A DNA stretch of 34,304 nucleotides, filler included, from an uncultured virus (IMG/VR IMGVR_UViG_2049941000_000096) (Duplodnaviria > Heunggongvirae > Uroviricota > Caudoviricetes). It is 13 parts of one record of this genome, joined end to end, with 100 filler letters (N's around TTAATTAATTAA, not from the genome) between each part and the next. Parts side by side here need not be neighbours in the genome. Positions count along the whole stretch, not along the records: positions 23,543 to 24,950 come from IMGVR_UViG_2049941000_000096; 12 more parts are not named here. One strand, given 5' to 3'. Positions within the stretch are counted from its first letter, which is position 1, and every line of letters starts with the position of its first letter. This document shows positions 16,860 to 28,338 of the stretch, one piece after another. The translations under genes and the position numbers were made by a program. The notes beneath the pieces were generated by a model. The model had not been told where the DNA came from and made no database searches. It saw only the letters and a program-made list of their open reading frames with translations.

Positions 16860-16895
16860 AACGTTTTCCTCCTATAATAGTTTGTGTTTGTTAGT

Positions 16896-22696: not shown

Positions 22697-23012
22697 ATGC
22701 GCGTAGTTATTAATTCTAACATTCTCACAGTAGAAACTGACATTCCTGTAGCTGTAGTTGAGCGCGGCATCGCAGATCTCACCGCTTACGATGAGAAGAA
22801 GAACCCGCTGTACGCAGTAAAGCTTAACAAGGATGGCAACGGCAACCTCAGCCAGTTCGGACTCTCAGCTAACTCCATCATAGATGGTAAGCTGGCAGTA
22901 GTGATCGTTGAGGAGATCGGATTTACCCGCGAGGACTTCATCAAGAAGTACGGTAAGGGTGTTGTAGCAGCACAGAAGTTCTGCCCGATCATTACAGGAA
23001 TTATATCATCAC
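22697..23012 (+). CDS. Hypothetical protein (3' truncated)
   Basis: RBS AAGGAGG, start MRVVINSNILTVETD; strongly biased codon usage (AAG, TTC, ATC, GGC) suggests high expression. Confidence 0.8.
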
Positions 23013-23079
23013 NNNNNNNNNNATAAAACCCCCTCCCAGAAAAGATTTAAAGGGGAGGGGTGCACACAGGAGGTATAAC

Positions 23080-23265
23080 ATGGAAATAAAAGACAGACTC
23101 AAACAGCTACGCAACCTCACAGGAATGACACAGCATACATTTGCTGATAGGTTTAACATTCCACACAGTACATATGAGCAGTGGGAAATGGGTATACGTA
23201 AGCCCCCTGTGTATGTAGTAGATATGATAGAAACCATAGTTCATTTGGAAAGAGGTGATTGGTAA
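23080..23265 (+). CDS. XRE-family HTH transcriptional regulator
   Basis: LKQLRNLTGMTQHTFADRFNIPHSTYEQWEMGIRKPP; RBS AGGAGG. Confidence 0.9.
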   Translation: MEIKDRLKQLRNLTGMTQHTFADRFNIPHSTYEQWEMGIRKPPVYVVDMIETIVHLERGDW

Positions 23266-23408
23266 TGAGATACTTGTACATGAACAAAACCACAGGAGAA
23301 CTTTATCCTAACTTATGGTGTGCAATTCGCACGATCATCCATGACATGATTTATAACCCCCGGTGCAGAACACTGAAGATGTTCTGGTTGCAACGAGGCG
23401 ATTTCTAA
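23265..23408 (+). CDS. Small hypothetical protein (47 aa)
   Basis: TAATG overlap with the XRE stop, RBS AGAGGTG; MRYLYMNKTTGELYPNLWCAIRTIIHDM...; followed by another RBS and ATG. Confidence 0.55.
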   Translation: MRYLYMNKTTGELYPNLWCAIRTIIHDMIYNPRCRTLKMFWLQRGDF

Positions 23409-23543
23409 GAAAGGAGTGATACAAATGTTATGTGATACATGTNNNNNNNNNNNNNNNNNNNNNNNNNNNNNNNNNNNNNNNNNNNNTTAATTAATTAANN
23501 NNNNNNNNNNNNNNNNNNNNNNNNNNNNNNNNNNNNNNNNNNA

Positions 23544-24271
23544 AGAATAGGAATTCCTGAAGTACACATATATGACTTCGACACAGTAGATGCACATAAC
23601 ATAACCAATCAGATGTTTCTGTACAATGATATAGGTATGTCCAAGGTTGATGCCTGTGAAGCAGCTATGAAAGGTATTAATCCAGACATGAAAATCCATA
23701 AACATCCAGAAGGTTTACAAGAACCTTATGTAGTAAATGGANNNNNNNNNNGCGAAAACGAAGAGAAACAGATGTGCATAGCAAATGACTACGATCGTTA
23801 CGACGATGATGGTTCTGCGTACAGCAGCAATCCAACAGACCCGGACATTGACTCAGTTCGTACTATCTTTGAGACAATGATTGACCGCACAGCAGAACGC
23901 GGGTCTAAGTCACTCTACAATACCTGCCTGTCAATACACACTATAATTGACAGAACCCTTGGAGATATGTTATTAATGAACTNNNNNNNNNNGCAACTCC
24001 GATGTCAGCATGCGGTGTAGAACTGAGTGTAGTTTACACAGTAAAAGCAATAACAGCATTCGGTATAGCAAACATGGTTAAGTGGCTGCAAGATGCAGAT
24101 TACAAAACTATGGCTATAGTGAATATGGATACATTCACAGTAGATGCATTCAAAGCAAAGCCTAGGAAAAAGAAATCCTTCTTCGATGAATTCAATAAGA
24201 AGCTTGGTATAAAGATAACTGTCAACATTGAAGCTCCGAAGGAGCAAACAGAGGATTTTGATACATTATAA
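23544..24271 (+). CDS. ThiF/MoeB/E1-family adenylyltransferase (pieces 23544-23741 and 23993-24271; 5' truncated)
   Basis: RIGIPEVHIYDFDTVDAHNITNQMF...DIGMSKVDACEAAMKGINP (DxDxVxxxNxxxQ and GxxKV motifs). The C-terminal piece ATPMSACGVELSVVYTVKAI carries a Cys at the crossover-loop position. Confidence 0.88.
23753..23982 (+). CDS. Unrelated coding fragment inserted between the ThiF halves (probably a misplaced contig)
   Basis: The only long open plus-strand frame is ENEEKQMCIANDYDRYDDDGSAYSSNPTDPDIDSVRTIFETMIDR...; it is bounded by 10-N gaps and has no ThiF motifs. Confidence 0.4.
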
Positions 24272-24347
24272 TAAGGTAATCTTTTAAGTACCAGCCCAAT
24301 ATGAAATTTAAAGCCACCCCCTGCCTGGGTGAGAAAGGAACAACATC

Positions 24348-24950
24348 ATGGTATACTTAAACTACTTGTCTAAGACAAGAAACAAAATCGGTATGACACC
24401 AGAAGAACTTCAGAAAGAAATAGAATACAACAAAGGACGTATAGCTACTAAGGTACTACCCAATGCCAACCGGATCAAGTACAACTCAAAGACAAATGAT
24501 ATCCTCTGTAACCTTAATAATTTTGTCTATGCTATGAATATAAACTATCCTGATATATCAGGTATGTACCGCACATTCCAGATCCCTAAGCGTTCAGGAG
24601 GCTTCAGAGAAATATGTGCACCTGATGATACACTTAAAATGATCCAGGAACACATTCTGGAAATATTCACCAAAAAGCTTAAGGTTTTACCGCACAATGC
24701 AGCACATGGATTTACAAAGCATCGCAACTGTAAGACTGCATTAGAGGTACATAAGGCACATGGATCACGTTGGTTTCTGAAGCTGGATATAAAAGACTTC
24801 TTCCCCAACACAACTACCGATATCATAAAGGATGCCATGAAACAGGTTTATCCTTACTGTCTTATGACAGAACAGTGTATGAACAAGATGATTACTATAT
24901 GTACATTAAATGGTGCAACTCCGCAGGGCGCACCTACATCACCTATGATA
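24348..24950 (+). CDS. Retron-class RNA-directed DNA polymerase (reverse transcriptase), 3' truncated before the YxDD motif
   Basis: YRTFQIPKRSGGFREICAPDDTLKMIQ, HNAAHGFTKHRNCKTALEVH (region X-like, ALxxH for NAxxH), FLKLDIKDFFP and LNGATPQGAPTSPMI; RBS GAAAGGAA. Confidence 0.93.
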
Positions 24951-25052
24951 NNNNNNNNNNNNNNNNNNNNNNNNNNNNNNNNNNNNNNNNNNNNTTAATT
25001 AATTAANNNNNNNNNNNNNNNNNNNNNNNNNNNNNNNNNNNNNNNNNNNNTG

Positions 25053-25226
25053 GTAGCTACTTCACAGGAAAATGTAAAACCTAAAAAGTTGATTCATGTG
25101 ATGTTGCAGGGAACCTACGACGTTCAAACATACAGGCTCGTTGAACGTAACGTAGATGAAACTGCAATCATCAATGATTATAAAAACTATATCCAAGAGA
25201 GGAGAAAGAACAATGGCAAACAATAA
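25053..25226 (+). CDS. C-terminal end of the SNF2 helicase (partner of 1-438)
   Basis: KLIHVMLQGTYDVQTYRLVERN resembles the SNF2 terminal motif (xxLxxxGTxDExI); its stop overlaps the next gene start. Confidence 0.6.
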   Translation, partial: VATSQENVKPKKLIHVMLQGTYDVQTYRLVERNVDETAIINDYKNYIQERRKNNGKQ

Positions 25227-26179
25227 CTTAAGCGGAGTGTTATCATTCCGTGATGCCACAAGACAGCAGGCTAAAGCCTCTATCTTAATCGAGGGATTGA
25301 GTGGTAGAGGAAAGTCAGGTTTAGCACTGTTGCTCGGACATGCATTGGCTGGTAATGATTGGTCAAAAGTATATGCCGTTGATACTGAGAATAGATCACT
25401 TGATCTGTTTGAAGGTATTAACATGAGCAATGGAGCTAAGTGTGAACCATTCAAGAAAGTAGACCTGCTCCCTGCACATGGATACGCACCTTCAAACTAT
25501 CTGATGTGTAAAGAAAATGCAATCACTGCCGGTGGTGAAGTAATCATCAATGATTCAATCACCCACATGTGGCAGCAGGAAGGTGGTGTGCTTGACATAG
25601 TTAGTCAGGTACAGCTGAAAGATAGTAAGCGGTACAATAACTACACAGCATGGGGCGCACCTGAAGTAAAGACTGAGAAGCAGGCTATCTACAACGTGGT
25701 CAGAGATGCTCGGATCCATGTAATCNNNNNNNNNNGTACGTGTTAAGGAAAAGTTTGAGATTAACTCAGACCACACGCTTACATCTCTCGGTGAACAAGA
25801 ACAGCAGATGCCTGATCTTAAGTATGAGCCTGACCTTGTGTTACAGATGCAGAAAGCAGGAGCTATGAATGGCACAGCGCCGGTAGCTAAGGTAATTAAG
25901 AGTAGGTATGCAATCTTCCAGGAGGGTGAGATATATCAGTTCACCGATGCAAACATCCAGAGTCTTGTAGACTACCTTAAGGAAGGTACTGATCCTAATG
26001 AGCTGTTTGAAAAGCAGCGCAAGGATTACATCCAGACCATTAAGAATATTCTTGATGGAGATGTANNNNNNNNNNCCATGTTTGCTACCTTAAAGGAGCA
26101 GCAGGGTTATAAGGATACCAAGCTGGTAGACTTACCGCTTGATGTTCTTCAGACACTATTAGGTATTTTATTAGCATAA
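25213..26179 (+). CDS. AAA_24/Sak4-like ATPase (putative single-strand annealing recombinase), gapped
   Basis: Start MANNN at 25213; Walker A EGLSGRGKS, AVDTENRS, Walker B IINDSITHMW, and YEPDLVL. Confidence 0.85.
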
Positions 26180-27067: not shown

Positions 27068-27229
27068 GTGGAAATGACGCACATCAGTTTCAGTACATAC
27101 TATGATAAAAGTATATTAGACATACATTCAGAACCTAGATTCGATACTATTCAATATACTGAAATGATGAAAGTATTAAAATTCTTTGTAGCAACTAATG
27201 AAATCTTTGTAGGAGGAACGCTCAAATGA
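27068..27229 (+). CDS. C-terminal fragment of a hypothetical protein
   Basis: VEMTHISF...EIFVGGTLK* with an ATGA overlap into the next gene; its fusion to polA in the ORF track crosses an N gap. Confidence 0.5.
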   Translation: MEMTHISFSTYYDKSILDIHSEPRFDTIQYTEMMKVLKFFVATNEIFVGGTLK

Positions 27230-27443
27230 ATATAAACTTTACAGACCCACGCATGGTAATGTGTCAACAGGAGTATAACAAACTCGATCCTGAAGAACGT
27301 ATAACCATGTCTCACTTTGATCTGGCACAGCACACAGCAATAGACCAGATAGAACCTTGGATTGATTTCCTCAAAGATCCCCGTGTAGCAGACAGCATCA
27401 ACGAAGAGCTTACAATCTATAAGGAAGCACAGCAGCGTAAGCT
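27226..27443 (+). CDS. Hypothetical helical protein (3' truncated); possibly small-terminase-like
   Basis: RBS AGGAGG; SHFDLAQHT...WIDFLKDPRVADSINEEL is HTH-like. The function is a guess. Confidence 0.5.
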
Positions 27444-27545
27444 NNNNNNNNNNNNNNNNNNNNNNNNNNNNNNNNNNNNNNNNNNNNTTAATTAATTAAN
27501 NNNNNNNNNNNNNNNNNNNNNNNNNNNNNNNNNNNNNNNNNNNGA

Positions 27546-28338
27546 AATGACCAACTGATAAAAGTAATTGATCTTGCTTATCACACACCACTTGCGTTTA
27601 ATCTGGGACAGTTTAAAAATGTCAGAGGATATCTTGATACACTTGTCGTAGGTGAATCAAGAGTAGGTAAGTCAAGCACAGCAGAAGCACTGAGAACTAC
27701 ATATCAGCTCGGTACATTTACATCACTCGCAGGAAATAGTGCTACTGTACCTGGTCTTATAGGTGGTAGTAATAAAACTCCTGGTGGTGGAATGCAGACC
27801 AAAGCAGGACTCATTCCTCAGAATCACAAGGGTATGATTATATTTGAAGAGTTCGGTAAATGTAATAGTAATATCACAGCCGAGCTTACAGATATCCGCA
27901 GCAGTAATGAAGTAAGGATAACCAGAGTATCTGGAATACTTACACTGCCTGCTATGGTAAGGATGATATCTCTGAGTAATGTGAAATCAACAGGATCTGA
28001 GATAAAATCAATAGCGTCATATCCTAACGGTATTTCAATAATAACTGAGCTTGTGTCTACAGCAGAAGATATAGCTCGGTATGATATAATGTGTGNNNNN
28101 NNNNNTTCCTCAGCTTTTAATAATGCTGGAGCAGGAATCAAAACCATCAAGAAACTCTTTGATGGCAGCTGTAGGCTTAGACGCAAATACATATAATGGA
28201 TTTATGTCTCAGCTTATAAGAGGAAGTTTTATAAAGTTATCTGGAATGGATGTACTTCCTACAGAACGATTCAGACTTGGTATGGCTAAGATAAACAGAA
28301 ATGGAAGCCTGGTTAAATTAGGAGAGACAAATGCTTAA
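27546..28338 (+). CDS. MCM-type AAA+ replicative helicase (5' truncated, gapped)
   Basis: Walker A LVVGESRVGKS, ATVPGLIGG, KAGLIPQNHKGMIIFEEFGK (Walker B), pre-sensor-1 hairpin VRITRVSGILTLPAMVRMISLSN, arginine finger ARYD, and a winged-helix-like C-terminus. Confidence 0.85.

Follow-up and report, generated by a model that had tools for sequence, protein, structure and literature searches.

A ThiF/E1-type gene of a predicted phage ubiquitin-like conjugation cassette and the retron-class reverse transcriptase gene behind it

Bacteria are known to use retrons as anti-phage systems, and the operons for conjugation of ubiquitin-like proteins (Ubls) of the Bil and Cap2 kinds belong to bacterial immunity as well. 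Here we describe a locus in which a retron and a Ubl-conjugation cassette appear as conserved genes of phages themselves. The locus lies in a 34,304-nucleotide (nt) stretch of DNA from an uncultured virus of the Caudoviricetes (IMG/VR IMGVR_UViG_2049941000_000096), referred to in what follows as the window, in which the C-terminal part of a ThiF/E1 gene is followed on the same strand by the gene of a retron-class reverse transcriptase (RT). From comparison with relatives we predict that the ThiF protein is the E1 of a phage-encoded Ubl cassette and that the RT downstream of it serves as polymerase in a true retron, with one to three msr-msd noncoding RNA (ncRNA) genes in relatives.

On the retron side the nearest described systems are type II-A (St85/Sen2/Ec86) and type I-A (Ec83, Ec78), which share with the phage element the profile and fold family of the RT, a1/a2 repeats each with an adjoining G, and, in 68 of 75 relatives, the YADD motif. 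Unlike known retrons, the element is carried by phages, scores below the St85 cutoff, has TAxxxH and NLG in place of the usual motifs, begins with a 78-residue extension and, in the subgroup of the window, comes with up to three tandem ncRNA genes behind the RT. Types II-A and I-A differ further in their partners, since no nucleoside deoxyribosyltransferase (NDT), ATPase/HNH or other listed effector accompanies the phage RT and its constant neighbour is the Ubl cassette.

On the conjugation side the closest relatives are the BilABCD operons, bacterial antiviral systems made up of a Ubl, an E2, a JAB peptidase and an E1 with the domain order IAD-AAD-CYS (available text of PMC10557695 and PMC11601596). 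The phage cassette has the same four types of part, with a protein that is likely E2-like and a JAB that probably trims the tag; it differs in being phage-encoded, in an E1 with a single adenylation domain of ∼225 residues, in a tag lacking a conserved C-terminal Gly, in an E2-like domain that forms the C-terminal third of a protein of ∼500 residues, in an extra protein of 125 residues and in the retron that follows. In the Bub operons (6E/DUF6527), as portrayed in the available text of PMC11601596, a BubAB fusion needs cleavage and BubCD is devoid of a catalytic cysteine. The phage loci resemble these in the minimal, homodimer-type E1 that is expected, in two Ubl fusions (loci L062 and L063) that would need cleavage by the JAB, and in the match of the E2-like model to the BubCD entry 9eav_D (Z 4.8), but they encode JAB and E1 in separate genes, their E1 retains an invariant Cys, and the fusion partner of the tag is unlike an E2-like domain. 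The ThiF of PRTRC systems (TIGR03736), found on plasmids and integrative and conjugative elements, is likewise small (∼245 residues) and borne by mobile elements; the phage proteins reach 35.8-47.4 bits against its NCBIfam cutoff of 144.75, and neither ParB nor any other PRTRC model matched among the neighbours of the cassette.

A survey in hLife (2024) found viral genomes, mostly of digestive-system origin, to contain retron-like RTs whose function it left open (PMC13681634); the available text on its viral RT clades does not mention ThiF, ubiquitin or ncRNA. ThiF, ubiquitin and JAB each occur zero times in the main texts of Mestre 2020 (PMC7736814) and of a 2021 review of RTs (PMC8632793), and none of the papers returned by full-text literature searches connects genes for ThiF, an E1 or a Ubl to a retron or to an RT of phages. 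The initial annotation of this DNA, which knew of no phage-carried retron type with an E1 partner that had been characterised, is borne out to this extent. Its proposal of an undescribed phage module is upheld in part: the module is conserved and apparently undescribed, but it consists of a five-gene Ubl cassette and a complete retron, not of an E1-RT pair.

The ThiF-RT junction and its two genes

The association of the two genes can be read from the stretch 23993-24950, which contains zero N and carries both on the + strand. The frame of the ThiF C-terminal part stops with TAA at 24269-24271 and the RT begins with ATG at 24348, leaving a spacer of 76 nt (24272-24347, + strand) with a hairpin at 24314-24332 and the ribosome-binding site AAAGGA at 24334-24339. 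A consensus scan of 23993-24950 for terminator-like sites returned none on the + strand and three on the - strand. All 958 nt of this stretch are spanned at 95-99% likeness by a single 2282-nt contig from a sequencing run of a different study (X5), and the junction is bridged also by record 6 of run X7 (23993-24382) and record 4 of run X2 (24112-24950), runs X1 and X2 being possibly the source sample. Because contigs from X5, X7 and X2 cross the junction the linkage is real and an assembly artefact is excluded. The hairpin, CACCC...GGGTG, stands just 5' of the ribosome-binding site of the RT, recurs before the RT in two relatives (L001 and L003) with altered stem letters, and may be a regulatory element.

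The RT frame remains open from the ATG up to the gap at 24951 (linker 24951-25050), so that 201 codons are present (24348-24950, + strand), encoding the N-terminal 201 of ∼345-365 residues: the 78-residue extension, then motifs 1 to 4. The Pfam model RVT_1 matches from residue 79 (E 4.7e-11, 43.2 bits, cutoff 29.6), and the closest relative of the fragment is the RT of L003, with 65% identity. Much of what the initial annotation had said of this stretch was confirmed, namely the two genes on one strand 76 nt apart, the lack of a U-tailed terminator between them (by direct reading and the terminator scan), a contig that is neither chimeric nor an artefact of scaffolding, an N-terminal extension put at ∼70 residues and found to have 78 before the RVT_1 match, and the quoted RT motifs, IPKRSGGFREICAP, AHGF, TALEVH, LDIKDFFP and PQGAPTSP, each of which is in the translation.

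Full-length homologues of the RT have 353-390 residues and lie mostly on contigs of ∼50 kb. We assign them, by their profile scores, to the retron class, as had been proposed at the outset, their top matches being retron models and retron structures. In NCBIfam the leading model is retron_St85_RT, at 188-209.5 bits and thus below the cutoff of 235 for retron St85 / type II-A, followed by the Ec67 and TIR retron models, with the group II model at 75-92 bits on the same sequences; PADLOC gives RT_II-A as best (E 1e-54) and RT_III-A as next. Against solved structures an RT profile scores 154 bits for Ec83, 144 for the 'Retron' entry 22et, 137 for Ec78, 128 for Kva2, 126 for Ec67 and 108 for Ec86, compared with at most 75 bits for group II RTs and 50 bits for Drt2. 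A diversity-generating retroelement was rejected as an identity on these scores (retron, 108-154 bits), template and variable repeats (TR/VR) not having been searched for. The main text of PMC7736814 names NAxxH (region X) and VTG (thumb) as motifs of retron RTs. The window has RNCKTALEVH where NAxxH is expected, with 22 relatives conforming to TAxxxH and the R, C and H invariant, and the thumb triplet of the relatives is in NWNLG[LIV] where VTG is expected. The catalytic motif is RYADD in 68 of 75 relatives and RYSDD in 2; in the remaining 5 the simple-pattern match fell elsewhere in the sequence.

Two parts of the ThiF gene are preserved in the window. The first (23544-23741, + strand) covers approximately residues 37-102, with a Pfam ThiF match at E 1.4e-10 (41.2 bits, cutoff 28.1) and 68% identity to residues 37-102 of the L005 protein; the N-terminus with its GxGxxG motif falls in the linker 23443-23542. 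The second (23993-24271, + strand, stop codon at 24269-24271) is the C-terminal part, which is known through relatives (60-67% identity to residues 164-240 of L001 and L005) and keeps the family-invariant Cys in TPMSACG, its codon lying at 24011-24013. ThiF proteins of the relatives have 214-263 residues and one ThiF domain (for L001, Pfam ThiF E 8.5e-22, 77.9 bits), and across 46 sequences G23, G25 and G28 of GxGxxG are kept at 90% or more, with D109, R114, D132, R134 and C176 invariant. These features identify the protein, at the level of sequence, as a minimal single-domain E1 of the ThiF/MoeB type, with nucleotide site and invariant Cys predicted to be intact.

The cassette and the noncoding RNAs in relatives

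In order to place the junction among its relatives IMG/VR was scanned with an alignment of 22 RTs, by which at least 510 viral stretches were found to code for relatives of the RT; the 80 top-ranking loci were retained (81 with L001 and L002, which are one contig). In 76 of 81 loci, or 75 of 80 distinct ones, a tblastn search with the L001 ThiF located a ThiF gene that lies upstream of the RT and shares its strand, and in each of the five misses a contig end cuts the sequence less than 1300 nt upstream of the RT. Every RT relative with enough upstream sequence thus has ThiF (75/75 distinct loci), down to 32-35% RT identity, and the adjacency that had been looked for among homologous RTs is a consistent one. 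What follows the RT falls into two settings. The genes c10, c6, an SNF2 helicase and an ATPase come next in 39 of 80 loci; the other 41 are devoid of these, most having other genes, largely on contigs of 60-140 kb, and a few being cut short downstream. The downstream genes of the second setting comprise an AAA/STAND-like ATPase, a metallophosphoesterase and genes of no recognised kind. The AAA/STAND-like ATPase lies just behind the RT at L043:5368-6474 and in four more loci (cluster c34; Pfam AAA E 1.4e-10, nSTAND3 E 4e-8). Family scans of the neighbours revealed no conserved neighbour resembling a retron effector besides the cassette, and no gene of the NDT-like family among the neighbour genes scanned.

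Clustering of open reading frames (ORFs) in the 80 loci establishes the order of the cassette as c0-long, c0-short, c2, c4 and ThiF, then the RT. None of c0, c2, c4, c10 and c6 has a significant family in Pfam, NCBIfam or PHROGs. The short c0 protein (∼75 residues) gives an AlphaFold2 (AF2) model with a mean predicted local distance difference test (pLDDT) score of 82.9 and the order beta-beta-alpha-beta-beta-beta, for which the top Foldseek match is ubiquitin (E 2.4e-4, template modelling (TM) score 0.57-0.65); going by this model it is predicted to be a ubiquitin-fold tag. Its C-terminus reads VK[AST][DNE][NSG][AGN], sometimes with 1-3 further residues, and has Gly in some members only. In L062 (2453-3064) and L063 (1665-2309) the Ubl forms the N-terminal part of a fusion with c0-long, an arrangement opposite to the usual gene order, so that cleavage would be needed to free the C-terminus of the tag. 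The protein of L057 (1280-1951) is also long, with an N-terminal part that is unlike the tag in alignment.

The first gene, c0-long (∼125 residues), is represented in the window by its start portion (22697-23011, + strand), which in tblastn is 70% identical to its L003 counterpart (E 1e-43), is cut at 23013 by a join of 10 N and can be aligned with 33 relatives. Pfam, NCBIfam and PHROGs contain no family that it matches, the ESM Atlas gave nothing useful, and a relationship of c0-long to E2-like domains was rejected at an hhalign probability of 0.08%.

The c2 protein has ∼450-630 residues, the last 210 of which are modelled with pLDDT 89.5 and include, within the motif NPHxxxYxCxG, a Cys and a Gly that are both invariant. 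Comparison of this C-terminal domain with VIA-align returned E2, UEV or RWD folds in nearly all of the 50 rows listed, with Z 4.1-6.6, among them the chain matched in 8tyz_C, an entry for a bacterial complex of E1, E2 and Ubl (Z 5.7), and BubCD. Since the Z values are middling we regard the domain only as likely to be E2/RWD-like. Pfam matched none of 37 members, Foldseek on the C-terminal domain gave nothing at E 0.001 or better, and the ESM Atlas offered weak leads to Prok-E2_D (0.78-0.80) that stay under the threshold of the tool. For c4 (∼230-360 residues) the assignment is firmer: E, H-S-H, S and D of the JAMM motif are invariant in 40 sequences and the c4 profile matches RPN11, the proteasomal deubiquitinase, across the motif (E 1.3e-4), features that mark it by sequence as a JAB metallopeptidase with a JAMM motif predicted to be intact.

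A check for Ubl, E2 and JAB genes near ThiF, which had been suggested together with the original proposal, therefore located a Ubl, an E2-like and a JAB gene, all upstream in relatives, and it is on this point that the proposal has to be revised. An E1 with Ubl, E2-like and JAB genes of its own is not one half of a two-gene E1-RT system, and its expected substrate is a protein tag rather than DNA made by the RT; for protein-nucleic acid conjugation the analysis provided no evidence.

The ncRNAs were found in two arrangements. In the subgroup that includes the window (L001, L003-L008) the spacer between ThiF and RT is 14-98 nt, and 440-1300 nt 3' of the RT are without a conserved ORF. This region contains 14 units of 168-251 nt in the seven loci, two or three per locus in tandem (L001:2285-2884, L003:6600-7155, L006:7030-7702, L007:6837-7380 and L008:7074-7469) and only one each in L004 and in L005. 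A perfect inverted repeat a1/a2 of 8-11 nt, different in sequence in all 14, closes each unit, inside which one or two small hairpins on the 5' side are accompanied by a long one that is often near-perfect; folding z-scores are -4.7 to -18.4. A G comes right after a1 in 12 of 14 units and right before a2 in 14 of 14; in retron ncRNA a second G faces the branching G across the stem. On these sequence features we assign the units a predicted msr-msd architecture with a branching G, a conserved G having a role in RT priming in retron ncRNA according to the main text of PMC7736814. The msd hairpins, of up to ∼60 bp and nearly perfect, seem unusually long for a retron. As the 14 units aligned too poorly in MAFFT to support a covariance model, statistics of end pairing were used instead.

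In a larger subgroup the gap between ThiF and RT is 200-480 nt and the ncRNA candidate is 5' of the RT. A loose search for a1-G...G-a2 (8 nt) proved unspecific, with hits in 61 of 67 loci vs 25 of 65 control regions, and for this reason a positional test of the gap ends was used. In 18 of 40 loci the first 50 nt of the gap can form a pairing of at least 8 nt with its last 65, all 18 with the G after a1 and the G before a2, as compared with 92 of 1524 non-cognate pairs of gap ends that reach 8 nt. A third group has an extra gene, c17, between ThiF and RT, in a gap of 900-1200 nt. Rfam, applied to 11 loci, gave no retron family, only tRNAs and one borderline abiF RNA; the latter motif (37.9 bits, gathering score 37) is at L012:7102-7217, adjoining a tRNA gene, ∼200 nt behind the RT stop. 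In the window a search for the motif and for inverted repeats found no ncRNA unit, as is expected if the unit lies in the missing part behind 24950; candidates at 16873 and 19892 were ordinary sequence on inspection.

Possible cooperation of the two modules and the alternatives

How retron and cassette might cooperate can be sketched as follows. The JAB would trim the Ubl; the E1 would adenylate its C-terminus and pass it via its own Cys to the E2-like Cys, from which it would go onto protein targets; the RT would make multicopy single-stranded DNA (msDNA) hairpins out of the ncRNAs; and the RT-msDNA complex would gate or direct Ubl conjugation, a coupled system that the phage would use in conflicts with host defences or competing phages. 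That a phage retron clade has taken a Ubl-conjugation cassette as its partner is a proposal on which we are evenly divided, and for which an analogy is available in Septu, the partner of the type I-A retron (accessible text of PMC12819146). In its favour are the constant position of ThiF upstream of the RT in both downstream settings, the lack of another conserved neighbour that resembles a retron effector, the closeness of the two genes on one strand in the subgroup of the window, and the covariation of ThiF and RT identities. It is improbable, in our judgement, that the msDNA hairpins, of which there are up to three different ones per phage and which are rich in short palindromes, act more specifically as baits or scaffolds, bringing DNA-binding proteins of host defence or rival phages to the E1/E2-like machinery, where they would be tagged and disabled with the retron as targeting arm.

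A number of observations weigh against a partnership. With the ATPase c9 as its anchor, a further scan yielded 52 loci, 45 of them with ThiF, and of these 41 have the RT and four (L096, L111, L113 and L127) do not; in L111, L113 and L127 c10 starts 2-12 nt after ThiF and the retron is cleanly absent, so that the cassette does not need the RT. The retron is always accompanied by the cassette and the cassette is sometimes alone, a pattern that recurs in known retrons whose effectors also exist stand-alone (for example Septu, type I-A) and that is also expected from a single old insertion. Pairwise identities of ThiF and RT correlate with r 0.87, a value reached in 0 of 999 permutations, which fits inheritance as one block and does not separate co-function from shared ancestry. 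In some loci c17 or small ORFs stand between the two genes, the retron signature motifs are variant (TAxxxH for NAxxH, NLG for VTG), the C-terminus of the Ubl is not a conserved Gly, and the E2-like match of c2 combines middling Z of 4-6.6 with no Pfam and no Foldseek match.

Many of these observations would be accommodated if the two modules were independent neighbours, the Ubl cassette having a core function such as modifying a virion or host protein and a stand-alone retron having been inserted once between it and the replication genes, followed by vertical inheritance. Relatives that keep the cassette cleanly without the retron (4/45) and genes that can separate ThiF from RT are as expected in that case, cassettes made up of (msr-msd)-RT alone are known (main text of PMC7736814), and distant ThiF-like genes exist in other phages where the RT search matched nothing among the matches listed. 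However, the cassette is present for 75 of 75 distinct RT loci with enough upstream sequence, even at 32-35% RT identity, the pairing is kept even where downstream genes differ, and the subgroup of the window has both genes on one strand with 14-98 nt between them, no + strand terminator being seen at the junction in the window. We view independence as a tenable but rather doubtful account. Another possibility is that the retron serves phage DNA metabolism, unlinked to the Ubl, with msDNA as a decoy or sponge for host nucleases or restriction enzymes or as a primer or recombination substrate. The module adjoins genes for an SNF2 helicase, an ATPase, a single-stranded DNA-binding protein (SSB), a primase and a DNA polymerase, the msd hairpins are very long and near-perfect with up to three different copies per phage, and there is an excess of CTGCAG in the ncRNA regions of 50 loci (22 sites in 17.1 kb vs 147 in 579 kb outside, ∼5-fold), where GGATCC is enriched ∼7-fold as well. 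The CTGCAG excess may, however, be an effect of hairpin base composition and of kinship among the loci, 6-bp palindromes as a whole occurring at 17.2/kb inside vs 13.4/kb outside, and the constant order of RT after ThiF is left unexplained. We consider this role unlikely.

Least probable of all, and very much so, is that ThiF, the beta-grasp protein and the JAB constitute a sulfur-carrier pathway of the ThiS/MoaD/CysO type for modification of a cofactor or nucleic acid. Operons of this kind with a JAB have been described (Iyer et al. 2006, available text of PMC1779556), the E1 is minimal and single-domain, and its best NCBIfam matches are ThiF/MoeB models; their 71 bits, however, are far under the cutoff of 159, scans with Pfam and NCBIfam recognised no sulfurtransferase or other sulfur-pathway gene among the conserved neighbours, the loci encode an E2/RWD-like protein that carries an invariant Cys, and the tag does not end in Gly-Gly.

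Should retron and cassette indeed cooperate, they would represent a retron type with a protein-tagging machine as its partner, and a bacterial virus with a ubiquitin-like system of its own. Even as independent modules, the phage Ubl cassette would be of note for its minimal E1, its E2-like domain within a large protein and its tag without terminal glycine, and the tandem arrays of long-hairpin ncRNAs would provide material for retron biology and for retron-based tools of DNA production.

Occurrence, assembly and surroundings

Among phage records ThiF has 43 matches and the RT 10, with MT835544.1 the sole record in both among the matches listed. Distant ThiF-like genes annotated as 'thiamine biosynthesis protein' are found in crAss-like phages (cr85_1, cr126_1 and cr128_1), the Flavobacterium FpV4 group and the jumbo Xanthomonas phages PhiXhv-12/15/16, and may be E1s of phage Ubl systems. 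A scan of bacterial genomes produced 14 loci, all on contigs of metagenome-assembled genomes (MAGs) or uncultured assemblies and none of them a close chromosomal copy; the eight closest are on short or phage-sized contigs (2.6-53 kb), and the other six are distant (23-28% identity), one being on a 3.9-Mb contig.

That the element is of phage origin is supported by the other genes of the window, which encodes a major head protein (phrog_1357, E 1.6e-24) and, also by PHROGs, a tail-fibre-like protein and a fragment of DNA polymerase. A DNA similarity search of isolated phages with the window gave no match. The sequencing runs that contain window DNA are gut metagenomes, several of them bovine, with no RNA runs among them, and the phage is described as a rumen phage.

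Twelve 100-nt N/ttaattaattaa linkers and numerous 10-N joins connect the pieces of the window, which is a scaffold, and tblastn against relatives reveals pieces out of colinear order. One SNF2 helicase is split into fragments at 1-438 and 25053-25223, one primase into fragments at 542-781 and 27546-28335, and a c10/c6 fragment at 27068-27444 is displaced relative to the order in relatives; with fragments of single genes this far apart and an order unlike that of relatives, linkers and 10-N joins are unreliable for gene order. The parts that fall outside the window are the N-terminus (GxGxxG) and middle of ThiF, the RT past motif 4 (YxDD, thumb), the ncRNA and the greater part of the cassette. 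A misplaced fragment of 231 nt (23752-23982, + strand; reading frame 23754-23981), flanked by 10-N joins and without a ThiF match, lies between the two ThiF parts; by tblastn it has 58% identity (E 1.6e-26) to residues 60-135 of a protein encoded far upstream in L003, at L003:1-435. Behind the RT piece tblastn locates the C-terminus of the SNF2 helicase (25053-25223, + strand) and a conserved ATPase (25213-26155, + strand); in relatives these two genes are 2-4 kb downstream of the RT, and their L005 homologues match phrog_62 and phrog_1366. Two small ORFs of 61 and 49 residues are present at 23080-23408 and follow a GC-rich hairpin (23028-23060); the piece that carries them is joined by 10 N to the c0-long gene.

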